Of a stretch of 64,000 nucleotides of DNA, positions 9,430 through 63,290 are shown in pieces (position 1 is the stretch's first letter; the number at the start of each line of letters is the position of its first letter). The notes below the pieces were generated by a model, which searched no databases, was not told where the DNA came from, and worked only from the letters and a program-made list of their open reading frames with translations. Source of the stretch: an uncultured Porphyromonadaceae bacterium (lineage in GTDB: Bacteria; Bacteroidota; Bacteroidia; Bacteroidales; UBA12481); NCBI GenBank assembly GCA_964512915.1, contig CAZEKJ010000007.1, positions 15,572 through 79,571 on the forward strand, written 5' to 3'. A program made the position numbers and the translations under genes.

Positions 9430-9436
9430 GGCAACA

Positions 9437-9596
9437 GGCAGAAGGCAGAAGGCAAAAATTAGTCTTAAGTCCTTATGGCTTAAGAAACAAGTTTAAGTAA
9501 CAAGTTAGGGCAGTAGGGCCGCATATATGTGGCCTTTTCTGCCCTTTTACTTTTTTCCTATTACTAATTTCTGCCTTCTGCCTTCTGCCCTCTGCC
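9437..9596. repeat. GGCAGAA-armed palindromic element, subfamily A
   Basis: Left arm GGCAGAAGGCAGAAGGCAAAAATTAGT, right arm ACTAATTTCTGCCTTCTGCCTTCTGCCCTCTGCC. The core shares CTTAAGTCCTTA with the copy at 63151. Confidence 0.9.
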
Positions 9597-9643
9597 TTAT
9601 TTCAGGTCTTTTCCATACCTTAGGGCACACAAACCATCAAGCC

Positions 9644-17115: not shown

Positions 17116-17149
17116 TTTGTCCTGGGGGACGAGTAAAGATAAGAAAAAA

Positions 17150-17280
17150 GGCAGAAGGCAGAAGGCAGAAATTAGTAAGAGGTTAAAAGACAGAAGTAAT
17201 AAGTTAGAGCAGAGGCACCCTTCTTTCTTTTTACCTATTTCTTCTTCCTAATTTCTGCCTTCTGCCTTCTGCCCTCTGCC
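17150..17280. repeat. GGCAGAA-armed palindromic element, subfamily B
   Basis: Arms GGCAGAAGGCAGAAGGCAGAAATTAGTAAGAGG and CTTCTTCCTAATTTCTGCCTTCTGCCTTCTGCCCTCTGCC. The right end is flush with the GH95 stop (17281-17283). Confidence 0.9.
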
Positions 17281-19623
17281 TTATATAGCCTTCTTCCGCT
17301 CGCCCGGGCTCAGGGTTACGGCAACCTGTTTACCGGCATATGTGATGTCTGCTGTTCCACCGGTTTTCGAGCTCACATAAGCCTCTGTAATCTGTCCGTC
17401 TTTCCATTTCAGGTCGAACACAAAGCCTCCGCGGGCGCATAAACCTTTGTAGGAGCCGGTGTTCCAGGCTTTTGGTAAGGCCGGCAGCAGGCGGATCACG
17501 CCGCCGTGCGACTGGATCAGCATCTCGGCGATGCCGGCGGTGCCGCCGAAGTTGCCGTCGATCTGGAAGGGCGGATGGGTGTCGAACAGGTTTTTCATCG
17601 TACACTTCCGAAGCAGGCTCAACACGTTCTGATAGGATTTTTCACCATCCTGCAGCCGGGCATACTGACAAATGATCCAGGCTCGGCTCCAGCCGGTCTG
17701 ACCGCCGCCGAACGATAGCCGCCGCTCGATGGTAGCCCGTGCGGCATTGTAAAGCTCAGGCGTTTCAGGCGTGAACTGGCCCAGCGGGTAGAGTCCGAGC
17801 AGGTGCGACATGTGCCGGTGTCCCGGCTCCACCTCCTCATAATCCTCGATCCACTCCTGGATCACCCCTTTGGAATTGATACGGACCGGGGGCATGCGTT
17901 TCTGTGCGGCCTCGAGTTTAGCAGCAAACTCCGTGTCGGTGCCGAGAATCCGGCAGGCCTCCCGGCAATTATCAAACATCGTGTTCAATATCTCGATATC
18001 CACGGTGGCTGCATAGGTCAGCGCCGAGCTTTCCCGGGTTTTGGTGCCCGGAATCAGGAAGGCGTTTTCCGGACTATGTGAAGGATTTGTAACCAGATAG
18101 CCCTCGGGCGATTCCACCAGAAATCCGAGTACAAACTCGGCTGAGCCCTTCATCATCGGCCATGCCACGTTGCGCAGGAAGGCGGTATCGCCGGTGAAAA
18201 GGTAGTGCTCATACACCGTGAAAGTCATCCACGGCCCGTTCAGCGGCGTGATGCCCCATACCCCGTCGGCCACGCCGGTGCGGCCAAATGGGTCCACCAG
18301 GTGATGGAAAACCCACCCGTCGGTTCCGTACATTTCTTTGGCGGTAACCGTGCCCGGCTTAACAAGCTGTTCCATAAAGTTCACCAGCGGCAGTGCGGTT
18401 TCCGACAGGTTGCACACCTCAGCCGGCCAGTAGTTCATCTGGAGATTGATATTGGTATGGAAATCAGAATTCCAGGCCGCATTCATGTCCTTGTTCCAGA
18501 TCCCCTGCAGGTTGGCTGGCAGCTGTGCAGCACCGCGCGACGAGCCCATCAGGAGATAGCGGCCGTACTGGAAATACATAGCCAGCAAGGCATTATCTTC
18601 CCCGCCCTCTTTCATTTTGGCCAGCCTCACATCGGTTGGCAGCGAATCCAATTCTGATCCGCCCAGGTCGAGATCAACCCGGTTAAACATCGGCTGATAT
18701 TCCGCCAGATGCCGTTTCATCAGGTTTTTATCGGTCTGATTTTTAGCCTCATCCAACGTTTTCGCGCATACCGCCGCCGGATCGATGGACCGGTCGAAGT
18801 CCAGTTTGGTCAGGGAATAATCGGAGGCGGCGGCAAAACGCAGGCTTACCGAATTCGCCCCATCGATTGTCATCCCGGCGGAAGCCGGGATCCCCTGGCC
18901 ATTGTGCGTAATCCTCGCCTCCCCGGCAAATTTCATGTGTGCTCCGGCCGGACCGCTGCCGGCATCCTCGCCGTCGATGATCTGGCCGTTGAGGTGGATG
19001 GTACCATCGCTGTCGGTGGTGATCACGGCATCTTTTTCGCGGGTCATGGAAATCGTTGCATCGATTTTGCCTCCATCCAGGGCTTTGATATTGATGATCA
19101 GGATATTATCGGGAACCGAAGCGTATACTTCCTGCCGGTATTTCTTGCCGTCGACGGTAAATTCGGTGGCTGCTACCCCGGTTTTCAGGTCGAGCGACCG
19201 GCGGTATTCCGTTGGCTCGCTCTTCCAGCCGTAATCGATCAGCAGGTCGCCCAGAGGCTGATAGGAGCGGATCCGGGGTGGGGTTCCGAGCATATGGTCA
19301 TTCGCCAGCTGCCAGGCTTCCTTGAAACGGCTCTCAAACAGGGCCTTCTGGATTTCAGGCAGGTGCTGCAGGGAGCCCGGATTGTTGTTGTTCACCGGAC
19401 AGCCAGCCCAGATGCTCTCCTCGTTGATCTGGATCCTCTCATGCGTGGCATTGCCGAAAACCATGGCGCCCAGCCGGCCGTTGCCCACAGGCAGGGCTTC
19501 GTTCCAGTCCTTGGCGGGCTGGTTGTACCACAGAGTGAGATGGTTTGCATCAGGCTTTGAACCCGGATTTCCACAGCCGGTAAGCATAGCTAACCCGGCC
19601 AAAACAAAGAAAATATTTTTCAT
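17281..19623 (-). CDS. Glycoside hydrolase family 95 (alpha-L-fucosidase-like)
   Basis: N-terminal LWYNQPAKDWNEALPVGNGRLGAMVFG...ERIQINEESIWAG is typical of GH95. 780 aa. Lipoprotein signal. Confidence 0.85.
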   Translation of the reverse strand: MKNIFFVLAGLAMLTGCGNPGSKPDANHLTLWYNQPAKDWNEALPVGNGRLGAMVFGNATHERIQINEESIWAGCPVNNNNPGSLQHLPEIQKALFESRFKEAWQLANDHMLGTPPRIRSYQPLGDLLIDYGWKSEPTEYRRSLDLKTGVAATEFTVDGKKYRQEVYASVPDNILIINIKALDGGKIDATISMTREKDAVITTDSDGTIHLNGQIIDGEDAGSGPAGAHMKFAGEARITHNGQGIPASAGMTIDGANSVSLRFAAASDYSLTKLDFDRSIDPAAVCAKTLDEAKNQTDKNLMKRHLAEYQPMFNRVDLDLGGSELDSLPTDVRLAKMKEGGEDNALLAMYFQYGRYLLMGSSRGAAQLPANLQGIWNKDMNAAWNSDFHTNINLQMNYWPAEVCNLSETALPLVNFMEQLVKPGTVTAKEMYGTDGWVFHHLVDPFGRTGVADGVWGITPLNGPWMTFTVYEHYLFTGDTAFLRNVAWPMMKGSAEFVLGFLVESPEGYLVTNPSHSPENAFLIPGTKTRESSALTYAATVDIEILNTMFDNCREACRILGTDTEFAAKLEAAQKRMPPVRINSKGVIQEWIEDYEEVEPGHRHMSHLLGLYPLGQFTPETPELYNAARATIERRLSFGGGQTGWSRAWIICQYARLQDGEKSYQNVLSLLRKCTMKNLFDTHPPFQIDGNFGGTAGIAEMLIQSHGGVIRLLPALPKAWNTGSYKGLCARGGFVFDLKWKDGQITEAYVSSKTGGTADITYAGKQVAVTLSPGERKKAI

Positions 19624-33160: not shown

Positions 33161-33297
33161 GGCAGAAGGCAGAAGGCAGAAGGCAGAAATTAGTAAGAAG
33201 AAAGAGGTTAGAAGAAAAAAGGATCTTCGGCCCTAACTTCTTTCTTATTTCTTCTTACTTTTTACTAATTTCTGCCTTCTGCCCTCTGCCCTCTGCC
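33161..33297. repeat. GGCAGAA-armed palindromic element, subfamily B
   Basis: Exactly fills the gap between the convergent stops TAG (33158-33160) and TTA (33298-33300). Arms of 4 heptamers plus ATTAGTAAGAAG-type extensions. Confidence 0.9.
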
Positions 33298-35265
33298 TTA
33301 TTGAAGTTCCCTCCAGTCCTCGGTATTGCGCAGAACTTCCATCCTCAGCGCCGACATCCAGCTCACCAGCCAGTCGTGAAAGTAGCCAGGCTGACCGCTC
33401 CAGCGGGTCTGGAAGTAGGCTTCGGTTTGGGAGCCAGCCGGGCGGATCACTCCATGGTAAGGGGTTTTTCCGTCGGCAATGCACAGGTTACCATTATCCC
33501 AGGTGGCGAGAGCTTTTTCGCGCCAAATCAGGTTTCCGGTATATTTTGCGAGTTTCAGCCACTCCGGAACCAGCCACATGCCGAATGCATCAATATGATG
33601 ATGCTGGGTGGAAACGGCTGTTCCGCCGAAGGTATCGTACCCGTACTTCTTAAAATCGGAACTGTCGGATACCGGAACGGAATAGTGCCACATCCAGGAG
33701 GAGAGGTACCAGGAGGTTTTTTCGGCTTTATCCAGATAGGCGGAGTCGCCCGTGGCTTCAAAAAGCATCAGGGCTGCGCGCAGAATCGGCAATGACGACT
33801 CCTTGTCGATGCACCAGGTATCGAGCGCCCCGGCCGAAGTAAACCCATTCCGTGCAAACTCATCGAAATAAAAATCATAGGCCCTCTTTGCGGAAGCCAG
33901 GTAGGCATTGTTACCGGTAGCAGTGTAAGCTCTCATCATTCCGGGAATGATGAATGCACCCACGCTGCCTTCTCGGTAGAGGCAGGTTCCATCGGGTTTC
34001 CAGCCCTTGCCGTACTGTCCGGAGGCCTGCTGGTCCGAGAGCATGAAATCACAGATTCCCAGGGCGATGTCCTTATAATTGCTGCGGTCGATGCCGCATT
34101 TTTTGGTGGTTTCGTATGCCACCAGGAAATCGGCAGCAGCCTGACCGAGGTTACAGGCATCCACCACCTCCTCACTCTTTTCAATTCCGATAATATAGTC
34201 GAAATGCGTTCGGATCAGTCCGTTTGGCTGGGGCGCATATTTCGCCCAGGTATCCAGGCAAAGCAATCCCTTGTCGAGGGATTCCTGGTCTTTATTCCGG
34301 AGATAATCTTCAAGCAGCGAAATTGAAATACTGGCATTCTGCCCCGCCCATCCGATCTCGTATTTCCAGCCGGGCCGCTGAATCCAGCCTCCGTCGCGGA
34401 GCCAGAGTCCGATGCTGAATCCCCTGAATACTCCTTCCTCGGCCCACAGGCTCTCTTTAACAAAGCGTGTTGCCAGATTCCAGGCCTCCTGGGGTTCCGG
34501 CCGGGTAAGATCCGGATGCGGAATAATCTCCCAGGCTTTGCCCAGGAAGGTTTTAACTGCGGCATGATCGGGCAGGACCGGTGTTACCACAAGAACCGCG
34601 CTCATCACCAGGGTCTCCCCCTCTTTCAGTGTTAGATTGTCCCGGAATCCCGGAGCATACTGGTCGCGGTTGCTGTATCTCAGCGGCATCTCCTCCTCCG
34701 GCCAGATCAGCCGGTGGGTGGTTTTCGCCGATTCCGGCATCAGGGAGCAGGAGAAGGGTGTGCCTTTAGCGTCTAGGTCTCCCCACAAGGCCACCGCCCA
34801 TTTGCGGCCCTCCGAATAGGTGGCTCCCGGAACGGCCGATCGGGAAAAGGAGAAGCTCCACCAGGCTCCGTCCTTCTGAAATCCCTTGGGCTCAAGGCCC
34901 CTGCCCCATTCGTTGCCATTATAGCTGACCGACGGGATCATGAGCCACTCAGCCTTTCCCGGAACGGTAAAATCCAGGGTAAGCCTCAGGCTGTCAAGGC
35001 TATGCCCCGAAACATTCTTTATGGTTCGGGTGATCCTGTAAACGCCTTCACTTATCGGAATAATTTTTTCTGATGATTTAAGACCGTCGATGGCTAACGG
35101 AGTAATTGCACCAACGGTATCCCTCCCTTCGGTCAGCCATTGAACCTTGCCCGATTTTTGCCAGGAAAAGCCAGCCGTATTCGTTTTGCAGTTCTGAATC
35201 AGCAGCAATCCAAAAAGGGCGGCCCCGGTGAGGAGCACAACAGAAAACAAGGGTATCTTTTTCAT
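33298..35265 (-). CDS. Hypothetical lipoprotein-like protein, possibly (alpha/alpha)6 toroid enzyme
   Basis: 655-aa ORF with an N-terminal signal. The C-terminal half has repeated helical-hairpin-like motifs. No family recognised with confidence. Confidence 0.5.
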   Translation of the reverse strand: MKKIPLFSVVLLTGAALFGLLLIQNCKTNTAGFSWQKSGKVQWLTEGRDTVGAITPLAIDGLKSSEKIIPISEGVYRITRTIKNVSGHSLDSLRLTLDFTVPGKAEWLMIPSVSYNGNEWGRGLEPKGFQKDGAWWSFSFSRSAVPGATYSEGRKWAVALWGDLDAKGTPFSCSLMPESAKTTHRLIWPEEEMPLRYSNRDQYAPGFRDNLTLKEGETLVMSAVLVVTPVLPDHAAVKTFLGKAWEIIPHPDLTRPEPQEAWNLATRFVKESLWAEEGVFRGFSIGLWLRDGGWIQRPGWKYEIGWAGQNASISISLLEDYLRNKDQESLDKGLLCLDTWAKYAPQPNGLIRTHFDYIIGIEKSEEVVDACNLGQAAADFLVAYETTKKCGIDRSNYKDIALGICDFMLSDQQASGQYGKGWKPDGTCLYREGSVGAFIIPGMMRAYTATGNNAYLASAKRAYDFYFDEFARNGFTSAGALDTWCIDKESSLPILRAALMLFEATGDSAYLDKAEKTSWYLSSWMWHYSVPVSDSSDFKKYGYDTFGGTAVSTQHHHIDAFGMWLVPEWLKLAKYTGNLIWREKALATWDNGNLCIADGKTPYHGVIRPAGSQTEAYFQTRWSGQPGYFHDWLVSWMSALRMEVLRNTEDWRELQ

Positions 35266-39768: not shown

Positions 39769-39830
39769 GGCATAAGGGCACAAGGGCACAGGGGCACAGG
39801 GGCACAGGGGCACAAGGGCACAAGGGCACA
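39768..39830 (+). repeat. (GGGCAYARG)n array, 8 G-tracts
   Basis: Starts at the stop TAG (39766-39768) of the M14 gene. Confidence 0.9.
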
Positions 39831-40407: not shown

Positions 40408-41703
40408 ATGCGCCTTCCAAGACCTCCGCGATTTATTTTCGTTCCGGTCATCATTATGGCCATGCTGCTGGTTTTACAATTGGCTGGACAGAACCCTGAA
40501 GATCACAGTCGGGATAGCCTAAAAAATTACGAAAAGACCCGCATCGAAGGACGTTCCTATTGGTCAGCTTTCGTCAATACCGGTCCCTATATCAGGAAAT
40601 ATATATCCAAACGGCCCGAAACCAGCCCGGAAATCTCGGAATATTTCAGAAAACAGGAAGAGATTGTTAGCCAGCTAAAGACTGAACATTCCGAGTCCGG
40701 AGAATTAAGCCTGGCCTTTATCGGGGACCTGATGTGGATATGGTATGGCTGGGAGCGATTCCTGTCGCCAGAAGTACTGGCTGAACTGGAACGACACGAC
40801 GTGGTTCTGGCAAACCTGGAAACACCTGTCGATCCGTCGCGGCGTGTTTCTTTCCCCGTTCCCGATCATCCGTCATACAATTCCCCGGTTGAGTTATTGA
40901 CCTCATTCTACAGTAAAACAAAAAGGGTAAATACCCTGACAGCGGTATCTTTTGCCAATAACCACACGTTTGACAGGGGAGAGGATGGCGCACGGGCAAC
41001 ACTCGGCGTACTTGATTCCCTCGGGATCGGACATTCGGGCGTTATCAGGCCGGAAATCCAGAAAAAACCGTACTATCTGATAGAAAAAAATGGCATCCGG
41101 ATCGGATTCTACGCGACTTGCTGGGGAACGAACAAAGGGGAAGTAGGGCACGAGGGCACAGGGGCACATGGGCATGAGGGATTGAGGGTGAATGTGATTC
41201 AGGGACTTGCTCCGTTAAATCAGGACAAAATTGACCTGTCGGAGGTGAAGTCGGTTCTTGGCCAAATGGCTCAGGATTCGCTGGATTTTAAGATAGTCAG
41301 TATCCATTGGGGGTTTGAATTTGAGTTCTATCCCGATCCGGTCATCATGGAGGTTGGACACCAGATCGTGGCTTCTGGCGCAGACCTGATTATCGGTTCT
41401 CATCCGCATGTTCAGCAGCCGAATGAAATCTGTTTTCTCAACGGGTATCGCGGGGATATCGCTCCATTCCTGATTTTAACGCCGGATTCGGTCCCTCGCA
41501 AGGCACTGATTGCCTATTCACTGGGCAACTTTTGTACACCGATGTACACTCGGACTCACCGAACAGGGCAGATTCAGTCACTACGCCTGTATCGACATCC
41601 TGAAACCGGCCGGATCGATTGGACGATACCGGAAGTCAAGAAGATATATAATGAAAATGGCCGGAAATGGCGTACATTTAGAAGGTTAACCCTGGCATCA
41701 TGA
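40408..41703 (+). CDS. CapA/PGA_cap family metallophosphatase-like protein
   Basis: LAFIGDLMW, FANNHTFDRGEDG, VSIHWGFEFEFYPD, GADLIIGSHPHVQQP and AYSLGNF motifs. Contains an in-frame degenerate G-rich repeat. Confidence 0.8.
   Translation: MRLPRPPRFIFVPVIIMAMLLVLQLAGQNPEDHSRDSLKNYEKTRIEGRSYWSAFVNTGPYIRKYISKRPETSPEISEYFRKQEEIVSQLKTEHSESGELSLAFIGDLMWIWYGWERFLSPEVLAELERHDVVLANLETPVDPSRRVSFPVPDHPSYNSPVELLTSFYSKTKRVNTLTAVSFANNHTFDRGEDGARATLGVLDSLGIGHSGVIRPEIQKKPYYLIEKNGIRIGFYATCWGTNKGEVGHEGTGAHGHEGLRVNVIQGLAPLNQDKIDLSEVKSVLGQMAQDSLDFKIVSIHWGFEFEFYPDPVIMEVGHQIVASGADLIIGSHPHVQQPNEICFLNGYRGDIAPFLILTPDSVPRKALIAYSLGNFCTPMYTRTHRTGQIQSLRLYRHPETGRIDWTIPEVKKIYNENGRKWRTFRRLTLAS
41137..41190 (+). repeat. 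Degenerate in-frame G-rich octamer array inside the CapA-like gene
   Basis: GGGGAAGTAGGGCACGAGGGCACAGGGGCACATGGGCATGAGGGATTGAGGGTG encodes GEVGHEGTGAHGHEGLRV. Confidence 0.75.
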
Positions 41704-44828: not shown

Positions 44829-45776
44829 ATGAGAACTGTTCTTACATCTCTATTCTGCCTGATCCTGCTCGGATTGACTGGCTGCAGCGGGTCATTTCCA
44901 ACCGACAAGCCCATAGTTGAAGGTTTCATCGATGTAACCGGCGGTAAGGTTTATTACAGGATCGTGGGAGCCGACAAGCCTGGAATCCCCCTTTTGGCTC
45001 TTCACGGCGGCCCCGGAGCCGCACATGATTATCTTGAGCCCCTGGAAGCCCTGGCCGATGAGCGTCCGGTGATCTTTTACGATCAGTTAGGCTGCGGCAG
45101 CTCCGACCGGCCGGGTGACACGACCCTCTGGACCCTCGAACGATTTGTGGATGAGCTGGCAACAATCAGGAAAGAGCTGGGATTAAAAAAGGTGCACATC
45201 ATGGGACAGTCATGGGGCAGCATGCTGGCCGCCGAATATATGGTTACAAAAAAACCCGCCGGAGTTGTGAGCCTGATCTTTTCCGGCCCCTGTCTGAGTG
45301 CGTCACGCTGGATTACCGACCAGCACGCCTGGATCAGCCAGATGCCCGATTCGATGCAGAACGCCATTCGGATTGGCGAGGAAACCGGAAATTTTGCGAC
45401 CCCCGAATACCAGAGTGCGCTCAACTACTTCTATTCCATTCATGTCTGCCGGATGAACCCATGGCCCGATTGCCTGAACCGTTCCCTGGCCAAGATGGGT
45501 GTGGATGTTTATGAGTACATGTGGGGACCCAGCGAATTCACCGCCACCGGAACCCTTAAGAATTTTGACCGCACCGGTGAAATGACCGGAATAAAAGTTC
45601 CAACCCTGTTTACCTGCGGGGAGTTCGACGAGGCGACCCCGGCAACTACCGCCTGGTACCAAAGCCTGCTCCCAGGATCAGAACTAAAAGTATTTCAGGA
45701 CGCCTCGCACGAGCACCATCTGGAAAAAGAATCCGAATATATCGCCGCAGTCAGGGAGTTTATCGGGAAACAATAA
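44829..45776 (+). CDS. Proline iminopeptidase-family hydrolase (S33), lipoprotein
   Basis: LHGGPGAAHDYL and GQSWGSMLA motifs. Signal LILLGLTGCSG. Confidence 0.8.
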   Translation: MRTVLTSLFCLILLGLTGCSGSFPTDKPIVEGFIDVTGGKVYYRIVGADKPGIPLLALHGGPGAAHDYLEPLEALADERPVIFYDQLGCGSSDRPGDTTLWTLERFVDELATIRKELGLKKVHIMGQSWGSMLAAEYMVTKKPAGVVSLIFSGPCLSASRWITDQHAWISQMPDSMQNAIRIGEETGNFATPEYQSALNYFYSIHVCRMNPWPDCLNRSLAKMGVDVYEYMWGPSEFTATGTLKNFDRTGEMTGIKVPTLFTCGEFDEATPATTAWYQSLLPGSELKVFQDASHEHHLEKESEYIAAVREFIGKQ

Positions 45777-47175
45777 TTCCGTATGGCGGAAGATGGATCC
45801 GGATCGATTCCAATCTGCTGTCCGCGGGCTCCGCAAAAAGAACCTCGCCCAGGTAACCATTAACTGAATAGTGCGGCTTCTCGAGTTCCTGCAAAGTTCC
45901 CGTCAGGTTGATGGCAACCCAGATCCAGTTTTTAAAATCGCCCAGAGTCCTGACAAAAGTAATGACCCCAGGATTATCATTCGGAAGTATCCGGACCTCA
46001 CCGTGTGCCAGGGCCGGGTATTGTTTCCGCAAGGAAATCAGCGTTTTATAAAAATTCCAGAGGGAATTCGGATCCTTGATTTGCTCTTCCACGCTAATCC
46101 CGTCGTTTGCCTTGCCATATCGCTTGTCCCACCAGATTCCTGAATTTTTGTACCAGTGGGCCATACCCGGACCTTCTGTGTTCTTGTACCATTCGAAGGC
46201 TTCCCGCCTTGAAATCTGGTCTCCGTCGGTAGGCACCTCATGCTTGATTCCTTTCATCCCGATTTCCTGACCGTAATAGATCAGGGGCGTTCCTTTCAGC
46301 AGCAGGTTAAAGGCCGCACCCACCTTTTCCCTGGCCAGATCCCCGTTCATCAGGGAGGCAAAACGATCCACATCGTGATTCTCAATAAAAATCAGCTGGT
46401 CCTTGCCGGGGGGAGTCATCAGATACGTGGTATCCAGCTTGTTCTGGATCTGGTTCTTGTCGAGGGAATTGATGGCCATGTACAAGGGAAAGGCAAAAAC
46501 AAGATCGAGGTCCGCCTTCTTGAAAATCTCCGTCCCATACTCCATCCAGTTGGCCTGCTCCCCGATAATCCGGATATTTGGATTTATTGCCCGGAGTTCA
46601 TCAAAAAGCGGCTTCCAGAAACCAGCATAAAGATTGGTTAACCTGCCCGTAAAGTCGAGGTCATCCATGATGTGATCGATGCGGAACCCATCCACTCCGT
46701 CGTCGAACTTCCCGTCCTTGTTGGGATCCAGAAAGTAGTGGTAGAGATCATAGAAATATTTTTTTACCTCCGGATGATTCAGGTTGGCCATATTGAGACC
46801 CCGGGAGGTTCCGTCATAGGATATCACCTTTCCCCAGGGTGTTCCAGCCAGCTGATAATCCGGCTTGCTGGCATACCAATCGGAGCCCTCGGTTACATAC
46901 TGGGTCTCCATATCGAGGTAAAACCTCATTCCCCGCTTATGGATCTCCCTGAGCAGTTCCGTGAATTCCTTCATGGTGCCGTATTCCGGATCAATCTTCC
47001 AATAATCCTTGGCGAAATAATTGTGATAGGATTCAGATTCCATCAGCGGCAGCGTGAGAATCGAGGTAACCCCCAGATCCTGCAGGTAATCGAGCTTCTT
47101 TTTCAGTCCGTTAAGATCCCCGATCCGGTCGCCGTTGCTGTCATAAAAGCTTCTCGGCAGCACGTAATAAACCAC
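45760..47175 (-). other. GH13 alpha-amylase-family catalytic module
   Basis: GH13 conserved regions: YYVLPRSFYDSNGDRIGDLNG, DGFRIDHIMD, IIGEQANW and FIENHDVDRF. Confidence 0.85.
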
Positions 47176-50100
47176 CTCAGGAGCCGGTTTCTTTGTCTCC
47201 GGCTCAAACTCAATCATCTGGGTGACATACTTTTCCTTCGATTCCGGGAACCGAAACTCCCGCTCCTCAATGATCCGGTCGCGGATCACCCGGATCTTTC
47301 CCCCGCTGCCGCTCAATCCCTCCACTTTAACCCGATATGTTGCCCCGGCAAGTTCATCGGAAATAATCTTGAAACCGGTGGATGAGTCGCCGGGTGCCGG
47401 ATGATGAACAACAGGCAGTACCCCGATACCACCGCTGTGATTGACGATCACCCGGATCTTATCATAGAGGGGAGCCATAGGAGTAATGCTTTGCCGGAGT
47501 TGTGAGAAATCGCCCGGGATTTTTGCTACAAGTCTTCCGATATCGATGGTACCCCCCTCAATCCGTGTACCGGGAAGCAGCTCAATATCCATTCCTATAT
47601 ATATTCGCGTGGTATCGGCAGCCTGATCTCCGGTTTTACTGCGCACGAAATCCAGCTGAGTCTGGCCGGTTCGCCTCACCTGCGTCATGGAAAAGGAGTG
47701 AACCCCGATCCGGATATTCTCAACGGTCACCGAATCCCAATCCATGGGGAACTCCGGATTCAGGTATACATAATTTTTAATCGCATCGGGTTTGAATCCC
47801 AGCATCCCGTCGATGGCCGGCTGGATCACCATGGTTTCGCTCCAGCACTGATGGCGGCATACCCCGAAATATTTGTATTGGGTGCCATGGAGCACCTCCT
47901 CAATATAGCCCAGCGACCAGTTTTTGTAAATCAGCAGGTTGCTCATCAGTTTAGAGTACCCCTGAGCGGAATTGCCGGCCGCAAAATCTCCGAGGGAAGC
48001 CCAGCCGGTAAAGAGCGGCCACACACTTCCTGTATGGTAACCACCCGGCGCGAAGAATTTCGCCTTTTCACTCACGATCCGGGTTCCCCAGTCGGTGGTG
48101 AAATTGGGTGACGCGATCCTGTCAACCACGGCCCTTTTCTGTTCCTGGCTCCTGATCTGTCCCCAGTGCAGGGGGATGGCCGTCATCACCGAGGGCTCGG
48201 TCATGTAGGTGCCATCCTTGAAAATCCCGTGGTTGAAGAATTTCGTTTCCGGGTTCCAGAATCCGGTGTTCAGTTTATCCAGAACCACTTTCGCCTCATC
48301 GGTATATTTTGTTTGCAGTTCTTTAAGCCCGATATTTTCAGCCATATACGCTGCCTGCCCCAGTGCTTCGGCCCAACAGGAGACCATATACTGCGTGGTA
48401 TGGGTGACATAAAGATCACCGCCCTCTTCCCAGCCGTGTCCCTGCTGGGTGTTCTCGATCAGGTGGTCGCGGTCGGTATCGGTGGAATAACAGAAATCGA
48501 TGGCCTTTTTAATGAATGGCCACTCCTTGCGGATGAAAGCGGTGTCGCCGGAGTGATGTAAGTATTTGCCAGCCAAAACTATATAAAGAGGTGTGGCATC
48601 CGCCGCATCAAAATGTGCGATGCCTGAGGTGGTCAGTTCATGGTAGATTTTTCCTGAAACGTCCTGATACCTGGAAAAAAGCTCCAGGATGGTTTTTACA
48701 CGTTCAAAATCGCCATAATCGAGAACGGCAAACCCGCTCCAGACGGCATCCCGACCGAAATACCACGCGTAGCCTGGACGGCCGTTGACTTTTTGGGCTC
48801 CGTTCCAGCCGTAATCCGTGGTAGCGTATCCCGCAACCAGTGAGCGGCCCACACCGGGGGTATTCACGATAAACCGGTCGCTGCCCACCAGTGCCCACTT
48901 ATAGCCGGTATTGAAATCGGCATCCGGACCGGTGATGGTCAGTTTTCCATTGAAGAGTGATTTTGCATAATCCACAGCTGCAGCATAAACGGCATCCGGC
49001 TTCATCGCCGCCCTGCGGTAGGCTGAAACAGCCTCGGTGACACCGGTAGCCGAGGTCCCCAGCACCACATCGGCCATACTTTCCGGTTCCATGACCGTCT
49101 CCAAGGTTAGTGCCACCCTGAGTCCCTGATCCGGAGATCCGGTTTTAGCCGTAACAGGCACATTCATCCCGATGGTCATGGCGAAATCGCCCGATTTATC
49201 CCTGACAACCCAGGCGTTCAGCACCTCATTCCAGGAGTAGCGGATTTCGCCGGTAACCTTTTCCGAATAGGGCCACATAAACCGGAGGTTGCTTTTCAAG
49301 CTGATTACCAGATCGATCGGCTGGTCCCCGGAATAAGCATAGTGGATCACCGCATTCCCGTCGGTCGGGTGTACGGTGATGATCTCCTTCAGGAGGCTTT
49401 CCCCGAATGCGTAGATCCGGGTAAAAGATTCCGGTCTAACCTCGATGGCCGGTTTCAATGTATTCAGCGCGATTTCCTTATCGGGATTATGCATTCTGAT
49501 TTTAACCTGATAATCGCGCAGAGCCATAACCGGATGCGCCCACACCTCATCGATCCCGCCGGGCTCCTTGCCCAGAATCACCATTCTCTCGCCGGCAATA
49601 TCCCACATGTTCTTAGGCTGGGCCGTGGCCTTGAGGGTGATCTCACTATCATGCTGCACCCAGGGCTCAGGCTTCCCTAACCACAACTTTATACCTGCTT
49701 CTTCTTCCTGATTTCTGCCCTCTGCCCTCTGCCCTCTGCCTTCCTCTTCAGCTACGACAGGCGGTCCATAATCCCAATTCCTCACCTGGCTCACCATCGT
49801 CTGGCCGTCCAGGTAATCCAGCACATTCCGGGTAAATTTTTCCAGATGGGAGCTGTTATAATTGGGCATGTCATAATCCAGATAGGCCCCGATGGCCAAA
49901 ATTTTTCCTTTTCCCAGGGTGTATTCCGTGATCAGTTTATTCTGATCATAGAGGAATATGTATGCCCAGTCAACCGCTACAACCTTTCCGTCGGGAACAG
50001 CCTCTCCGAACCATCCTACTCTCCGTACATTGATGTCCTGTTTTGGCGCATAGACATAGGCCCCGCCAAGCATCCCGTCGAAAATCGGGTGACTGCGGAA

Positions 50101-51630
50101 GGCGTGCAGTCCCAGTTTCCGGCCGTTTCCTTCATCCACCAGTTTCGTATAGGAAACCGTTGGGGCCACCTTCTCCACCCCCAGGTATGGGAGCAATCTG
50201 ACAGCGTCCATGGTCAGCAGCAGGCTGCCGCCCTGCTCAACATGCCTGCGAAACTTCCCGGCCCACTCCGCTGCCTTTTTATCCAGGTCAACGGTTGAAT
50301 CCGGCTCGTGATACCAGAGCACTTTGCCATAGGGGGTTGGGGTCCCCGCTTTCGCGGGGATGACAAGTGCATCTGCACCATCCGGGTTCGCCGGGATGAC
50401 AAGAGCCTGATCTTGAATATCTTGTTTCTTTCTTTCGCCCCCGGGTCGAGCCCGGGGCAGGCTTTTCGCCTTTCGCCTTTCGCCTTGTTTCTCCAGCGCA
50501 ACCCCCTGCTCCCAATTTACGACATACTGCCACCAATTATTCAGATGCCCGTCCTCCGGATTGATCCCTTCGAAATGCGGAATATGGCTGAACCACCAGC
50601 TCATGTACCCTTCGTGTGAACATTGCCACTCGGAACAGTCCACCGTTCGGGTCATATCGGGCTTAATATCAGGATAATAGTTCCATCCATCGGCACATGT
50701 GGTAACCGGCGTTTTGTTCACCCAGTCATAATCAAACATGCCGTTGGGGGGAAAATGGATATTCCCGATGTTCGCCAGTCCGGGGTGTGTTTTGTTGAAG
50801 CGGGTATATTTCTCCCAGTTGTTGGGGACGGGCTCGTTATAATCCCAGCGGCCGTAAAGGTGCCACATCACGGATTCGAAGCGGTGACCGTAGCTTTCGA
50901 GTGCCAGCGACATTTTCCGTTCGTAGTTCAGTCCCATTACCACCAGAAGTTCCTTGTTCGAAGTGGTGGTTGTGGGTTCGGAGTTGAGCCAGAAGCCGGT
51001 GGCGCCGCAATAGTTGGATTCCCACATGCCTCCGTAAGGAAACGACCAGACCCACACCTCATTGATCTGATTTTTATCGCGCATTTTGTCGAAGCCGTAG
51101 TGCTCCACAAACTCCTTGTAATCGAAATGCGTTCCGGTCTCCTTGAGGGTTTTCCAGTCGGGCTCCATCAGCAGGTTGACCATCTCATCGGTGCCGAGCA
51201 TCACATTATTATCGTTCCTCCGGGAGAAGAACTTCCCGTCATCGATGATCTTTACCACCTCATACTGTACCACCCCATGGCTGATCTTTTCCAGGGCGGC
51301 CTCGTACTCCCGGTTCAGCACCATCGGATCGTTCCACATGAAGGTGCGGCCCGGGGTTTTCACCACCTCATGGAGCCGCTTGCCGCCATATTGAGGCAGC
51401 GCCGGATCCTGGATGACGACCGCGACTTTCACCTTGATGGGCTTGGCGGGGGGGAGCTGGGCGAAGGCAGAAGGCAGAGGGCAGAAGGCAGAAATCAGTA
51501 AGAAGAAGGAAGGAAGAAGGAACAGGTTTCTGCCAGCCTGTAGCTTCAGAGCCGGAGCGGAGCTGGGACATAAAACCCCGGGCTGAACCCCGGGGTTACT
51601 GATGTCTGTCGAAGACGATTTTCTAATCAT
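45760..51630 (-). CDS. 1956-codon composite ORF: unknown module A, unknown module B, glycogen-debranching (GDE_C/amylo-alpha-1,6-glucosidase-like) module, GH13 alpha-amylase-family module
   Basis: Uninterrupted frame. Module junctions consist of repeat modules otherwise seen in intergenic DNA. Whether it is one polypeptide is uncertain (see findings). Confidence 0.55.
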   Translation of the reverse strand: MIRKSSSTDISNPGVQPGVLCPSSAPALKLQAGRNLFLLPSFFLLISAFCPLPSAFAQLPPAKPIKVKVAVVIQDPALPQYGGKRLHEVVKTPGRTFMWNDPMVLNREYEAALEKISHGVVQYEVVKIIDDGKFFSRRNDNNVMLGTDEMVNLLMEPDWKTLKETGTHFDYKEFVEHYGFDKMRDKNQINEVWVWSFPYGGMWESNYCGATGFWLNSEPTTTTSNKELLVVMGLNYERKMSLALESYGHRFESVMWHLYGRWDYNEPVPNNWEKYTRFNKTHPGLANIGNIHFPPNGMFDYDWVNKTPVTTCADGWNYYPDIKPDMTRTVDCSEWQCSHEGYMSWWFSHIPHFEGINPEDGHLNNWWQYVVNWEQGVALEKQGERRKAKSLPRARPGGERKKQDIQDQALVIPANPDGADALVIPAKAGTPTPYGKVLWYHEPDSTVDLDKKAAEWAGKFRRHVEQGGSLLLTMDAVRLLPYLGVEKVAPTVSYTKLVDEGNGRKLGLHAFRSHPIFDGMLGGAYVYAPKQDINVRRVGWFGEAVPDGKVVAVDWAYIFLYDQNKLITEYTLGKGKILAIGAYLDYDMPNYNSSHLEKFTRNVLDYLDGQTMVSQVRNWDYGPPVVAEEEGRGQRAEGRNQEEEAGIKLWLGKPEPWVQHDSEITLKATAQPKNMWDIAGERMVILGKEPGGIDEVWAHPVMALRDYQVKIRMHNPDKEIALNTLKPAIEVRPESFTRIYAFGESLLKEIITVHPTDGNAVIHYAYSGDQPIDLVISLKSNLRFMWPYSEKVTGEIRYSWNEVLNAWVVRDKSGDFAMTIGMNVPVTAKTGSPDQGLRVALTLETVMEPESMADVVLGTSATGVTEAVSAYRRAAMKPDAVYAAAVDYAKSLFNGKLTITGPDADFNTGYKWALVGSDRFIVNTPGVGRSLVAGYATTDYGWNGAQKVNGRPGYAWYFGRDAVWSGFAVLDYGDFERVKTILELFSRYQDVSGKIYHELTTSGIAHFDAADATPLYIVLAGKYLHHSGDTAFIRKEWPFIKKAIDFCYSTDTDRDHLIENTQQGHGWEEGGDLYVTHTTQYMVSCWAEALGQAAYMAENIGLKELQTKYTDEAKVVLDKLNTGFWNPETKFFNHGIFKDGTYMTEPSVMTAIPLHWGQIRSQEQKRAVVDRIASPNFTTDWGTRIVSEKAKFFAPGGYHTGSVWPLFTGWASLGDFAAGNSAQGYSKLMSNLLIYKNWSLGYIEEVLHGTQYKYFGVCRHQCWSETMVIQPAIDGMLGFKPDAIKNYVYLNPEFPMDWDSVTVENIRIGVHSFSMTQVRRTGQTQLDFVRSKTGDQAADTTRIYIGMDIELLPGTRIEGGTIDIGRLVAKIPGDFSQLRQSITPMAPLYDKIRVIVNHSGGIGVLPVVHHPAPGDSSTGFKIISDELAGATYRVKVEGLSGSGGKIRVIRDRIIEEREFRFPESKEKYVTQMIEFEPETKKPAPEVVYYVLPRSFYDSNGDRIGDLNGLKKKLDYLQDLGVTSILTLPLMESESYHNYFAKDYWKIDPEYGTMKEFTELLREIHKRGMRFYLDMETQYVTEGSDWYASKPDYQLAGTPWGKVISYDGTSRGLNMANLNHPEVKKYFYDLYHYFLDPNKDGKFDDGVDGFRIDHIMDDLDFTGRLTNLYAGFWKPLFDELRAINPNIRIIGEQANWMEYGTEIFKKADLDLVFAFPLYMAINSLDKNQIQNKLDTTYLMTPPGKDQLIFIENHDVDRFASLMNGDLAREKVGAAFNLLLKGTPLIYYGQEIGMKGIKHEVPTDGDQISRREAFEWYKNTEGPGMAHWYKNSGIWWDKRYGKANDGISVEEQIKDPNSLWNFYKTLISLRKQYPALAHGEVRILPNDNPGVITFVRTLGDFKNWIWVAINLTGTLQELEKPHYSVNGYLGEVLFAEPADSRLESIRIHLPPYGIIVSR
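47176..49692 (-). other. Glycogen debranching enzyme-like (GDE_C) module
   Basis: YFGRDAVWSGFA, ADATPLYIVLAGKY, GHGWEEGG and GGYHTGSVWPLFTGWAS motifs are typical of amylo-alpha-1,6-glucosidase-type (alpha/alpha)6 enzymes. Confidence 0.7.
49698..49740. repeat. Single arm of a subfamily-B GGCAGAA element inside the composite ORF
   Basis: CTTCTTCTTCCTGATTTCTGCCCTCTGCCCTCTGCCCTCTGCC is followed by TTC where intact copies have TTA. No partner arm is present. Confidence 0.85.
49741..50340 (-). other. Module B of the composite ORF (unknown function, about 200 aa)
   Basis: PYGKVLWYHEPDS...NWDYGPPVVAEEE. A GTG lies at its start. Ends exactly where intact repeat copies carry a stop codon. Confidence 0.45.
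50341..50484. repeat. Composite of intergenic-type modules inside the composite ORF
   Basis: On the minus strand: (GGCGAAA)x3, GC hairpin CCCCGGGCTCGACCCGGGG, GAAAGAAAG, then two GTCATCCC...GAAA/GAAC hairpin units (50379-50400 and 50341-50364). Confidence 0.85.
50485..51459 (-). other. Module A of the composite ORF (unknown function, about 325 aa after the repeat-encoded N terminus)
   Basis: Compositionally normal coding sequence, PAKPIKVKVAVVIQDP...NNWWQYVVNWEQGVALEKQ. No family recognised. Confidence 0.5.
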
Positions 51631-51718
51631 TCCAGAGAGTTGTTATAATGAATACCTTATAAGACTTTAAAATTTTCACTTTCCTTTCTGCCTTTCTGCC
51701 CTCTTGCCCTTCTGCCCT
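51460..51718. repeat. GGCAGAA-type element whose left arm is translated as the N terminus of the composite ORF
   Basis: Left arm at 51460-51525 (GGCGAAGGCAGAAGGCAGAGGGCAGAAGGCAGAAATCAGTAAGAAGAAGG). Right arm at 51679-51718 (CTTTCCTTTCTGCCTTTCTGCCCTCTTGCCCTTCTGCCCTA). The ORF ATG at 51630 lies in the core. Confidence 0.7.
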
Positions 51719-56624: not shown

Positions 56625-56785
56625 CCAGTTACCGGTTGCCAGTTGCCGGTTGCCGGTTGGGCCAGAACTGTCATTCCGGCGAAAGCCGGAATCCCCTGAC
56701 AAGTGCTCCGGGGCCTGGGATCCTGACTTTCGTCAGGATGACAGTTCCGGCCCAACTGGTAACTGGTAACCGGCAACTGGCAACT
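56625..56785. repeat. Nested palindromic element, same architecture as 15495-15680
   Basis: Heptamer arms at 56625-56663 and 56749-56785. 10-bp stem GAACTGTCAT/ATGACAGTTC. Hairpins at 56670-56693 (GAAA loop) and 56719-56742. The left arm is flush with the stop at 56622-56624; the right arm ends 11 nt from the stop at 56797-56799. Confidence 0.9.
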
Positions 56786-56796
56786 TCTCCCAAGAG

Positions 56797-58170
56797 TCAG
56801 ATCTCTTCCCCAATACTATACGGCGGCCGGTAATTCCGCGTCAGCATCATATCGGCCTCCGGATCACTGGCAAATTTCTCGTGACTGCCCATGAAGTGAA
56901 CCTCACGGTTGAGCCGGTAGGATATGTTGGCCAGGTGCGGAAGGGCCGACGACATGAAACCCTCCTGAATATCGCAGTTGAGATCTTCATCTTTCCCTGA
57001 CCGGATGGAATCCAGAAAGTTGGCATAATGTTCGGATCCTCCGGGGGCTGCCCGGTACGTGGGATCCACCGGCTTCTCGGCGGCAGGCTTGTCGGACCCG
57101 GCAAACGAGTCTTTCTCCCTTTTCCTCCAGGCTTTCCAGGTGCTCCCGTTGATTTCCAGATACCCTTCCGTGCCGTAAAAAATATTCCCGATCTTGATAT
57201 TCAGGTTCCCTTCGCCGTTGGTATAAGCCCCCCGGGTCTCAAACTCGAAAATCTGGCCGTTGGCATATTTAAAGACTGAAGCCTGGGTATCCGGGGTTTC
57301 CTGGGAGCACTCGCGTTTGGTAAACCCGTATATCCCCCCGCTGGAGTAAATCGCGACAGGATGCTCATTCTGGCCCAGGCCCCATCGGGCTATATCAAAC
57401 TGATGCGGGCCCTGGTTTCCGGTGTCTCCGTTGCCTGTATCCCAGTGCCAGTGCCAGTTGTAATGCACGCGTTTTTCATTGTAGGGACGTAGCTGGGCAG
57501 GCCCGAGCCACCTGTCGTAATGCAGGGTTGCCGGCGGAGTGCTGTCCCTGGCGATCCCGAAAGAATCCCTGGGCTTCAGACAGAGGCCACGGGCCATGTA
57601 AACCTCCCCGATACCGCCCTCCCGCAAAAACCGTAATGCTTCCATTACCTGCGGAATCGACCGGTTCTGGAAACCAACCTGAACCCTTACATTATACTTC
57701 CTGGCGGCTTCCACCATTTTGCGGCCTTCAAAAACATTGTGACAGGCAGGCTTTTCAACATATACATGTTTGCCAGCCTGACAGGCCCAGATCGTTCCCA
57801 GGGCATGCCAGTGGTTTGGTATGGCCATTGAAACCGCATGTATCTCCTTGTCATCGAACACCTTACGCATGTCCCACTCGGTTGCCGGGCGATATCCGGT
57901 CAGTTTTTCAGCATTATCCGCCCGCTCCTTAAAAAACTGCTCATCCGCATCGCACAGGGTTTTAATCCTGACATTCCGGTCGTCCTTCAGGCTGGCATAG
58001 GTGTTGATATGCCCTCCACCCTGGCCCCGTATACCGATGATGGCCAAATTGATCCGTTCATTTGATCCGATAATTGATCCATAGGATTTGGCAGAAAAAC
58101 CCATGCCTCCGATGGCAATGCCTGCGGTTCCCACCAGGCTCTTTTTGATAAAATCTCTTCGTTCGGTCAT
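56797..58170 (-). CDS. TAT-exported Gfo/Idh/MocA family oxidoreductase
   Basis: Twin-arginine signal MTERRDFIKKSLVGTAGIA. Rossmann motif LAIIGIRGQGGGH. Confidence 0.8.
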   Translation of the reverse strand: MTERRDFIKKSLVGTAGIAIGGMGFSAKSYGSIIGSNERINLAIIGIRGQGGGHINTYASLKDDRNVRIKTLCDADEQFFKERADNAEKLTGYRPATEWDMRKVFDDKEIHAVSMAIPNHWHALGTIWACQAGKHVYVEKPACHNVFEGRKMVEAARKYNVRVQVGFQNRSIPQVMEALRFLREGGIGEVYMARGLCLKPRDSFGIARDSTPPATLHYDRWLGPAQLRPYNEKRVHYNWHWHWDTGNGDTGNQGPHQFDIARWGLGQNEHPVAIYSSGGIYGFTKRECSQETPDTQASVFKYANGQIFEFETRGAYTNGEGNLNIKIGNIFYGTEGYLEINGSTWKAWRKREKDSFAGSDKPAAEKPVDPTYRAAPGGSEHYANFLDSIRSGKDEDLNCDIQEGFMSSALPHLANISYRLNREVHFMGSHEKFASDPEADMMLTRNYRPPYSIGEEI

Positions 58171-58262
58171 AGTAGTTGGTTGCTGGTTACTGGTTGCTGG
58201 TTCTGGTTGCCGGTTGCCGGTTACCGGTTACCGGTTACTGGTCACTGGTCACTGGTCACTGG
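58171..58262. repeat. 12-unit heptamer array drifting from GTTGCTG to GTCACTG
   Basis: Fills the spacer between the stop at 58256-58258 (inside the last unit) and the ATG at 58170. Confidence 0.9.
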
Positions 58263-59128
58263 TTTTTCCATTGGTCGTTTAGGGTTAGGAATGCGCGCGG
58301 CAGGTCTTCGTTTTTCCAGGAGCCCTCAATGGAGATGCCTCCGTGATAGCGTATTTTCTTCAAGGCCTCAAAGTAAGGACGAAAGTCATCTCCATCCATT
58401 CCGGGCGCTGTGCGGGTTCTGAGTTCGGCAATATGGCAATGAACCAGAAGATCACCGGCATCCAAAATGGAGGAGGGCCCTTCATTTTCCCGCATCATGT
58501 GAAAAATGTCTGCTAAAACTCTGATATTCTTATCGTTAACTTCTCTTGCGATCGAAGTGGCCTCGGTTACGGTATTGATAAAATTGCATTCCGATTTTTG
58601 CAGGCTTTCTATGGCGATGGTCACATGGTATTTCCGCGCAACCGGACCCATTCTTTTCAGCAGGCTTACAAATTGGTTCCGGGCTTCTGACCGGTCGAAC
58701 TCTTCGGGGATCGAACGGGCTCCCGAACTGCCAAATACGATGATCCGGATCCCGGCCTGTTCCGCCCTCCGGAAGGCCACCTCTGCATAGCTCAGAACCG
58801 TATCGTGCCTGGCTTCCGGTCCGGTTACCTTAAGTGTTCCCGGAAGGAATCCGTTGCAGGCAATTACCGGCAGCTTGCAGGTATCAAATTCGGCCATTTT
58901 CTTCTGGAACTCTTCATCAGGTTTTCCGGGCATCAGGTCGCGTCCCACACTCCCTTCCAGGTACCGGAAGCCCGCTTGTTTCAGTATAGATGCGTTTGAC
59001 AGGGAGGTGCAAACGCCGAACTGTGGACCCTGCTCTCGTGCCGATGCTCCGATCCTTGTGGCCGGTTTGCATGCGGGTAACCCGATAAGAACGGCAGCTA
59101 TCAGGATAAGAAGAGGCCTGTTTTTCAT
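58256..59128 (-). CDS. Sugar phosphate isomerase/epimerase (xylose isomerase-like TIM barrel), lipoprotein
   Basis: 290 aa. AP_endonuc_2-like pattern (IRIIVFGS..., ESLQKSECNFIN, HCHIAE). The stop lies in the heptamer array. Confidence 0.7.
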   Translation of the reverse strand: MKNRPLLILIAAVLIGLPACKPATRIGASAREQGPQFGVCTSLSNASILKQAGFRYLEGSVGRDLMPGKPDEEFQKKMAEFDTCKLPVIACNGFLPGTLKVTGPEARHDTVLSYAEVAFRRAEQAGIRIIVFGSSGARSIPEEFDRSEARNQFVSLLKRMGPVARKYHVTIAIESLQKSECNFINTVTEATSIAREVNDKNIRVLADIFHMMRENEGPSSILDAGDLLVHCHIAELRTRTAPGMDGDDFRPYFEALKKIRYHGGISIEGSWKNEDLPRAFLTLNDQWKNQ

Positions 59129-63150: not shown

Positions 63151-63290
63151 GGCAGAAGGCAGAAGGCAAAAATTAGACTTAAGTCCTTAATCCTTAAGTA
63201 AAAAGTTAAGTATGAAGGAGGGCACAAAGCCAACCTTTTTACTTTTCTATCTTATTTCTTTTTACTAATTTCTGCCTTCTGCCTTCTGCC
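63151..63290. repeat. GGCAGAA-armed palindromic element, subfamily A
   Basis: Exactly fills the gap between the convergent stops TAA (63148-63150) and CTA (63291-63293). Confidence 0.9.

Follow-up and report, generated by a model that had tools for sequence, protein, structure and literature searches.

Positions 45760..51630 on the minus strand of a 64,000-nucleotide stretch of DNA from an uncultured Porphyromonadaceae bacterium (assembly GCA_964512915.1, contig CAZEKJ010000007.1; the whole analysed stretch is referred to as the window) hold an open reading frame (ORF) of 1956 codons plus stop. It very probably encodes a single secreted multi-domain enzyme active on alpha-glucans, with an architecture that is fixed in a clade of uncultured Bacteroidales and with permissive segments that have been overwritten by repeats. 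Translation of the listed ORF yields 1956 amino acids (aa) with zero internal stops, which bears out the original prediction, made from the sequence alone, that the frame is open throughout. Its parts follow one another in the order signal peptide, module A, linker 1, module B, linker 2, a glycogen-debranching-like (GDE-like) module and a GH13 module.

The fused gene is not peculiar to this genome. A search with the whole protein returned 11 proteins of 1906-1957 aa from Bacteroidota / Bacteroidales metagenome-assembled genomes (MAGs), with 97-98% query coverage and 64-88% identity, as well as a second group of about 1430-1460 aa, a paralogue or ortholog group with the arrangement A-B-GDE and no GH13 module. 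We further fetched 108 loci from species-representative genomes and metagenomes and searched them by tblastn with each of the four modules. In about 27 of these, from separate assemblies and at 64-90% protein identity, modules A and B lie together with GDE, and often GH13, in one stop-free ORF. The closest are L001, from a groundwater metagenome (86% DNA identity), and L007, from a MAG labelled Porphyromonadaceae (about 90% protein identity). A codon-level comparison with these two gave ratios of non-synonymous to synonymous substitution rates (dN/dS) of 0.04-0.10 for module A, module B, the catalytic part of the GDE-like module and GH13 (0.08-0.10 for B, 0.04 for the GDE catalytic part); purifying selection on each of the four modules is strong. 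Because fused orthologs exist, the modules are under purifying selection and the assemblies are independent, the ORF is to be regarded as one functional gene.

The existence of fused orthologs raises the question which of the junctions were once gene boundaries. The typical form of module A is a standalone protein of about 355 aa: of 214 proteins retrieved with this module alone, nearly all of the best 120 listed are hypothetical proteins of 340-390 aa without a Pfam domain, spread over many Bacteroidota. The standalone genes end 4-13 residues past a conserved motif NNWW.YVV.[WY][ED], which is the point where linker 1 starts. Unfused arrangements are found in distant relatives at 39-42% identity. 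In L041-L044, L046 and L083 an A gene is followed, after 0-40 nucleotides (nt), by a separate co-oriented B-GDE gene with its own signal peptide; in L040, L045, L062 and L066 one gene stands between the two, and in L024 (Flavisolibacter) and L028 (Flavitalea) B-GDE is a separate gene to which no A is fused. As standalone A genes and adjacent, separate B-GDE genes occur in distant relatives, the A|B joint is a genuine but ancient fusion point, common to the whole clade.

The B|GDE joint is of a different kind. Even at 37% identity no relative separates B from GDE, and in all distant proteins and most fused orthologs their junction is short and free of repeats. In the junction alignment the window and L007 have 13-16 additional aa, L001 and L029 about 52, and L039 is the one further locus with extra residues; linker 2 of L039, L033 and L002 carries GGNGAAA-type arrays. 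Since B and GDE are contiguous and repeat-free in distant relatives, linker 2 was inserted secondarily into a joint between domains that already existed, and in no sampled relative has B|GDE been a gene boundary. The original prediction had interpreted both linkers as traces of gene fusion and had proposed that at linker 2 the fusion came about by conversion of a TAA stop to GAA at 49741 together with loss of a hairpin, seen as a missing partner arm. The GAA codon 49741-49743, however, follows a native Glu-Glu, and the motif V[AV]EE is present in the repeat-free orthologs L008 and L016 as well (VAEE). As Glu-Glu is native in orthologs without the repeat, the loss of a stop is unsupported as a fusion event, and the "missing partner arm" reflects a partial copy of an element within a linker and not the loss of a terminator hairpin between genes. 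The comparison of orthologous loci that had been suggested as a check thus upholds the fusion at A|B, where the parts exist separately and side by side in the same orientation in unfused relatives (with spacers of 0-40 nt), but not its recency, given about 27 fused loci. Likewise the module limits are real as domain boundaries, while the one between B and GDE was not a gene boundary in the relatives, and the event is neither recent nor specific to this locus.

Both linkers read as originally described and are composed of repeats that recur in the window. Linker 1 (50341..50484, minus strand, aa 383-430) contains (GGCGAAA)3.3 at 50464-50486, a GC hairpin CCCCGGGCTCGACCCGGGG at 50439-50457, the segment GAAAGAAAG and two GTCAT...GAAA hairpin units at 50381-50400 and 50345-50364. 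Linker 2 (49693-49740, aa 631-646) starts with a (GGCAGAG)3.9 arm at 49714-49740, followed by AATCAGGAAGAAGAAGCAGG; the whole insertion (49675..49740, minus strand) comprises this arm and about 40 nt of element interior (AATCAGGAAGAAGAAGCAGGTATAAAG...) and represents a partial copy of a GGCAGAA inverted-array element. In the intact GGCAGAG copies at 17281 and 33298 a TAA directly precedes the arm, and these TAAs are indeed, as had been stated, the stops of the minus-strand ORFs 17281..19623 and 33298..35265. Within the window the GGCAGAA-type double unit GGCAGARGGCAGA has 26 matches against 0.11 expected, the GGCGAAA double unit GGCGAAAGGCGAAA 6 against 0.07 and the GTCAT hairpin pattern 8 against 0.72. 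Words of 13 nt were compared, as 11-mers gave too much noise (about 36% coverage in the controls); those shared with the rest of the window cover 34% of linker 1 and 24% of linker 2, compared to about 4% for control segments from the same gene, and not one of 332 (linker 1) or 345 (linker 2) control segments reached the coverage of the respective linker.

The description of linker 1 as consisting of modules otherwise seen between genes needs to be qualified. The modules recur above chance, but the sole other copy of the GC hairpin in the window lies in the ORF's own 5' extension at 51576-51595, and one GTCAT unit is situated inside a gene of family GH95. Nor are the repeats stop-free in all six frames, contrary to the original caveat: stops are absent from the three sense frames and from some antisense frames, but occur in two antisense frames of linker 1 and one of linker 2. 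Inside the element of linker 2 there is a genuine removal of a stop: four intact intergenic copies read GGCAGAAATTAG, while the linker 2 copies of the window and L007 read GGCAGAAATCAG, so that ATTAG has become ATCAG and an in-frame TAG has become CAG. At the RNA level linker 1 folds better than shuffled sequences (z = -2.57) and forms three local hairpins, and a scan of the whole window against Rfam matched no family. Searched for by exact DNA match in metagenome contigs, with the number of heptamers left variable, the linker 2 junction gave 0 matches, and L007 is the nearest independent assembly.

How these segments change between relatives is seen when the DNA of the window, L001 and L007 is aligned. 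With respect to the window, two blocks of exactly 24 nt (the GC hairpin) and 36 nt (a GTCAT unit) are missing from linker 1 of L001, and linker 1 of L007 carries an array of about 110 nt of GACGGCA/GACGACC units in place of the GGCGAAA array. The final GTCAT hairpin is present in all three, with the stem CCCCGC/GCGGGG in the window, CCCGGC/GCCGGG in L007 and a broken stem (GGAGGG) in L001. In linker 2 the GGCAGAG arm is common to the window and L007; L001 and L029 instead have a unit of 33 nt with a hairpin in it, repeated 3.5 times and related to the GC hairpin of the window's 5' extension. All length differences between the three linker versions are multiples of three, and no duplicated flank is visible around the inserts in these alignments. 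The window, L001, L039 and L033 have GGCGAAA-type arrays in common (giving 'GERRKAK', 'GERREAREERKG' and 'KGERRKEKGERE'), at an identity of about 70%. As evidenced by Tandem Repeats Finder analysis of the orthologs, arrays of period 7-9 gather at four places, namely in the signal peptide, where linker 1 begins, in linker 2 and close to aa 1330; their unit sequences differ among orthologs, and only a few short arrays occur elsewhere in the gene. Near-identical loci that were deposited separately (L001/L029, L012/L032, L016/L036/L037, L011/L030) have identical linker peptides, which disfavours rapid slippage. Taken against what is expected of in-frame repeat insertion, the repeats belong to multicopy families that include intergenic sites, with the GC hairpin confined to the ORF and its 5' region, and the host ORF is open while insert-free orthologs exist for linker 2, for the hairpin units of linker 1 and for an array in a PGA_cap gene described below. 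They do not conform to the definition of a miniature inverted-repeat transposable element (MITE), a complete element with terminal inverted repeats and a target-site duplication, as linker 2 is a partial copy and linker 1 a set of separate modules.

The signal peptide of the protein has been colonised in the same way. A hydrophobic, signal-peptide-like segment (LFLLPSFFLLISAFCPLPSAFA|Q, 51457..51525, minus strand), ending in ...FLLISAFCPLPSAFA|Q, is encoded by (TTCCTTC)3.3 at 51500-51522 and (TTCTGCC)4.4 at 51463-51493. In nearly all fused orthologs the signal peptide is likewise encoded by pyrimidine-rich heptamer arrays, with units such as TTCTGCC, TTTTGCC, CCTGCCCT and TCTCCTT; the lipoprotein signals of standalone A genes from other lineages are of the ordinary kind. 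The periodicity of the arrays is kept across orthologs in spite of saturated synonymous sites, perhaps a sign that the DNA itself is homogenised or constrained. The inverted partner of the signal-peptide array is a purine-rich arm of the GGGCAGAA type at 51686..51718 (minus strand), located directly after an in-frame TAG and 30 nt from the stop end (51748) of a DUF4432 ORF. Orthologs start with MKR just before the hydrophobic segment. This start is missing in the window and in L007, and the first in-frame start in the window is the ATG at 51630, 35 codons upstream and across the GC hairpin at 51576-51595. The resulting N-terminal extension (codons 1-35, 51526..51630, minus strand) is common only to L007 (7186-7290), and with 7 non-synonymous and 1 synonymous change between the two (dN/dS about 2) it does not appear to be constrained as a protein. 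A CTG start nearer to the signal peptide was considered and rejected, as L007 has CCG at that codon. With the MKR start gone, export of the window and L007 proteins remains putative.

In-frame absorption of repeats is a habit of this genome and not a peculiarity of the ORF. Composite elements, in which two inverted heptamer arrays bracket an AT-rich or hairpin-bearing centre, are found at 9436-9598, 15497-15678, 17148-17282, 33161-33299, 56628-56785 and 63149-63290, and at 51463-51718, the last including the signal-peptide array. Their arms often begin 0-7 nt after a stop, and their units vary (GGCAGAA, GTTGCCG/GTTACCG and others). Fifteen of 44 arrays of period 6-9 start within 20 nt of a stop codon, with a mean of 70% purine on the sense strand. 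In a PGA_cap/CapA-like gene (40408..41703, plus strand) the octamer array (AGGGCACA)3.8 is inserted in frame in a loop at 41145-41174 and translated as EVGHEGTGAHGHEG. This array is 27 residues (81 nt) longer in the closest ortholog, P0146, at about 90% identity (87% and 92% in two comparisons), and absent from orthologs at about 43% identity; the same unit family makes up intergenic arrays at 11084-11125, 12629-12712 and 39767-39830. The GH95 gene mentioned above (17281..19623, minus strand) carries the GTCAT hairpin unit GTCATCCCGGCGGAAGCCGGGATCCCC in frame at 18869-18888, in its N-terminal domain, with the peptide GIPASAGMT. The unit closely resembles an intergenic copy at 56670, and the hairpin is likely a further case of in-frame colonisation.

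Taking these observations together, we propose that the A to B-GDE joint goes back to an old fusion of two neighbouring, co-oriented genes, that the B-GDE joint would be older still and that GH13 would have been attached in one subgroup. The genomes of this lineage are full of 7-9-nt tandem arrays and small GC hairpins that normally fill the spacer from a stop to the next start. Such arrays may be copied into permissive coding segments, expand within them and replace one another there; such segments are disordered linkers between domains, loops on the surface and the hydrophobic signal-peptide core. Selection would then act as a filter through which only frame-keeping, stop-free variants survive. 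Being purine-rich on the sense strand, the arrays yield low-complexity peptides rich in Gly, Glu, Arg, Lys and Gln, acceptable as flexible tethers, and the linker peptides presumably lack a function beyond tethering. Because the copies are fragmentary, target duplications are absent and replacement takes place at fixed sites, slippage, template switching or gene conversion would be favoured over transposition as the mode of copying.

Several points weigh against this account. The compensatory pair in the GTCAT stem, comparing the window with L007, could mean selection on structure instead of neutrality. In the window clade most of the conserved N-terminal stretch of about 45 residues of module B (IGFV...EQKAAL.YL...) has been replaced by hairpin-derived sequence, with traces left at both ends, and this loss exceeds neutral linker change. 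The origin of the linkers from intergenic-type repeats is demonstrated just for the sub-clade of the window and L001; for the linker repeats of the other orthologs no recurrence was seen in 10-20 kb of flanking sequence, flanks that were probably too short. An AlphaFold2 (AF2) model of linker 1, module B and linker 2 weakly suggests disorder of the linkers, with a predicted local distance difference test (pLDDT) score of 24-35 for linker 1 and 29-35 for linker 2, but the model is poor altogether (mean pLDDT 51). We infer translation as a single chain from the conservation of the gene, and the uncertain assignment of the start is the weakest point of the gene model.

Other explanations differ in what they make of the same repeats. 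A recent fusion in this genome, through loss of the TAA at 49741 and of a terminator hairpin and through an analogous event at linker 1, would account for the match of the linker 2 arm to the arms that directly follow the TAA stops at 17281 and 33298, and it is in line with the enzyme size of the modules and with A and B-GDE being separate genes in distant lineages. It is nevertheless highly improbable, for fused orthologs are found in about 27 loci down to 64% identity, B-GDE is contiguous in every relative, including those at 37% identity, with the GAA following a native Glu-Glu, and L001, 86% identical in DNA, stays in frame with an unrelated repeat at the linker 2 site. Even less credence can be given to an artefact, be it an assembly chimera across repeats or a decaying pseudogene that stays open through its stop-poor composition. 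The repeats are stop-free in three sense frames, L014 has a run of N in the linker 1 repeat and L031 a stop in module A, yet the same architecture with the same linker 2 is present in the independently assembled L007, the GGCGAAA array and the last hairpin of linker 1 recur in L001 and L029, and every module is under purifying selection. A better case can be made for descent of the linker 1 array from a post-stop spacer array between the ancestral A and B-GDE genes, which was read through and later renewed. This is compatible with the explanation proposed here, and we consider it possible, if on balance doubtful. In fused orthologs the arrays begin 8-10 residues past the NWE motif, close to where standalone A proteins end (4-13 residues past it), arrays in this genome typically stand 0-7 nt after a stop, purine-rich and stop-free in the sense frames, and the GGCGAAA type is common to the window, L001, L039 and L033, with an identity of about 70%. 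The 0-40-nt spacers of the unfused L041, L043 and L083, on the other hand, hold no array, the array sequences differ so completely among sub-clades that homology is untraceable, and similar arrays occupy linker 2 and the PGA_cap gene, sites that never were spacers.

Two further possibilities assign the repeats a function. A switch in which slippage of heptamer copy number reversibly truncates the protein to module A or abolishes its secretion would make sense of four in-frame heptamer arrays in one ORF, at conserved positions and with changing units. Repeat switching in signal peptides is well established; in the opa genes of Neisseria, CTCTT repeats in the signal-peptide coding region make expression phase-variable, and here as well a pyrimidine-rich non-triplet repeat encodes the hydrophobic signal-peptide core. 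Unlike in opa, the tracts are short, with just 3-4 units, and while a non-triplet repeat is present in the ORF, frame-shifting copy-number variants are not: about 27 loci keep the frame at every array, near-identical loci have identical linker peptides, and the one difference in copy number that was seen, in PGA_cap, amounts to 81 nt and keeps the frame. We regard such a switch as very unlikely. A role at the nucleic-acid level, for example of mRNA hairpins that pause ribosomes for co-translational folding or of sites for protein binding or processing, is unlikely too, albeit to a lesser degree. It draws on the RNA fold of linker 1 (z = -2.57, three local hairpins), on the compensatory change in the GTCAT stem between the window and L007 and on the perfect heptamer periodicity of the signal-peptide region despite synonymous saturation. 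L001, however, does without two of the three hairpins and has a broken stem in the remaining one (GGAGGG), most orthologs have neither the linker 1 hairpins nor the linker 2 insert, and Rfam gave no match. Beyond the single gene, it is a tentative thought that the lineage maintains strand-asymmetric 7-9-nt arrays throughout the genome, purine-rich after stops and pyrimidine-rich before or over starts, that would be a constant source of coding material because no stops occur in their sense frames. If this is true, such arrays furnish signal-peptide cores, linkers and loop inserts, neighbouring genes are 'fusion-ready', and a DNA-level process, conversion or slippage, keeps the arrays periodic even in genes with saturated synonymous sites.

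The overwriting of permissive segments by intergenic-type repeats that we favour has its closest described counterpart in the in-frame insertion of Rickettsia palindromic elements (RPEs) and other MITEs. RPEs, QMITE1 of Coxiella and intragenic enterobacterial repetitive intergenic consensus (ERIC) sequences are MITE-type repeats inserted in frame in protein-coding genes (reviewed in PMC10969869; PMC5896051). As in those cases, short repeats of intergenic type lie inside ORFs here with the frame intact and add peptide at permissive sites, insert-free orthologs exist, and several unrelated genes of one genome are affected. The inserts differ in being 7-9-nt arrays, 20-25-nt hairpins and fragments of inverted arrays in place of elements of about 100-150 bp with a conserved peptide, in showing neither terminal inverted repeats nor target-site duplications around them, and in being exchanged and altered in size at a given site from one close relative to another; the host, too, differs, as a free-living member of the Bacteroidales from groundwater-type metagenomes. 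With respect to the repeats themselves, TAACTGA heptanucleotide arrays are abundant between genes in Beggiatoaceae, Cyanobacteria and a few Bacteroidetes (PMC4679880), and heptanucleotides are the commonest class of long simple-sequence repeats (Mrazek et al. 2007, as cited in PMC4679880). Like these, the arrays found here are short, with 2-13 units, and concentrate at the ends and starts of genes. In contrast to them they have many different units, often form inverted pairs that bracket a spacer, abut stops and starts, and stand in frame in coding sequence, where the literature treats non-triplet units as uncommon. The A|B joint, finally, resembles a 'Rosetta-stone' fusion, in that A and B-GDE are adjacent co-oriented genes in distant relatives and a single ORF here, with a joint that coincides with the end of standalone A. 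It departs from a Rosetta-stone stop loss in that the event is old (a clade at 64% identity or more), concerns one of the two proposed junctions and left a linker that is not the original spacer.

The locus offers a clear, polarised case outside Rickettsia and Coxiella of intergenic-type repeats absorbed into linkers, a signal peptide and a domain loop, with a turnover that is visible between genomes about 10% apart. The twist is that non-triplet arrays are read in frame at conserved positions, the signal peptide included. For annotation, the ORF should be kept as one conserved multi-domain glycoside hydrolase, neither split at the repeats nor flagged as a fusion artefact.

Regarding the individual modules, the GDE-like module (47176..49692, aa 647-1485) is made up of an N-terminal region, a six-hairpin catalytic domain of GDE_C / MGH1-like type at aa about 950-1270 in the Pfam search, and a C-terminal region. 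Both relevant profiles score above their cut-offs, PF06202 with 37.5 bits (cut-off 21) and PF22422 with 40.7 bits (cut-off 27). The GH13 alpha-amylase-family module (45763..47175, aa 1486-1956), joined to it by a short linker without repeat origin, matches Pfam Alpha-amylase (GH13) and DUF3459 at aa 1490-1954, with a C-terminal DUF3459 / Malt_amylase_C domain; PF00128 reaches 182.9 bits against a cut-off of 22, which places the module in GH13 at the profile level, and NCBIfam agrees. Profile searches, which the original prediction had suggested for modules A and B, gave a weak match in the case of B only: module B (49741..50340, aa 431-630) is weakly DUF4960-like, with 20.9 bits falling below the cut-off of 29.2 and its ortholog P0018 reaching 29.7 bits. 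Module A (50488..51456, aa 59-381) belongs to the widespread Bacteroidota family of standalone secreted proteins described above, for which there is no Pfam family, and it has no match in the PDB by sequence or profile. All these modules are encoded on the minus strand.

An AF2 model of module A from a 40-sequence alignment is of high quality (pLDDT 95, predicted template modelling score 0.92). Foldseek found nothing in the PDB at E <= 0.001, and a viral structure library gave no match. An adamalysin-type metalloprotease fold was considered on the basis of the best Foldseek matches and not accepted (template modelling scores 0.28 and 0.42, E about 5e-3). Invariant His, Glu and Asp residues, among them H191, E194, H234, H281 and H291 in module A numbering, suggest that module A is a putative enzyme, and in L041 and L043 it is accompanied by extra N-terminal domains and a C-terminal sorting domain of the type IX secretion system type. 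Its neighbourhood and its fusion with B-GDE and GH13 link the family to alpha-glucan degradation; this makes module A a candidate uncharacterised carbohydrate-active module and provides a functional lead. The ORF is neighboured by a GH31/melibiase-like gene, a DUF4432 gene, a major facilitator superfamily (MFS) sugar transporter and an alpha/beta hydrolase, a setting that would be compatible with a glucan-utilisation locus.

A few observations on individual loci and repeats may be added. In L007 the N-terminal region of the GDE-like module falls short by about 75 codons, module A of L031 is interrupted by an in-frame stop (945-947), and in L014 a run of N at 1083-1440 lies inside a 30-nt tandem repeat of linker 1, where the assembly is broken. 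Elsewhere in the window, the whole space between two tandem genes on the minus strand is taken up by the array (TGGTTAC)12.7 at 58177-58264, which runs over the stop codon of one gene (58256..59128) and reaches to 7 nt from the start of the other (56797..58170). The listed ORF 9527..11083 crosses the TTCTGCC arm of an intergenic element (9527-9650), and its listed N-terminus is probably spurious, with a lipoprotein signal (MKRITAFILAALTIGSFSC) about 39 codons downstream. This is an example of how stop-free arrays inflate ORF calls.

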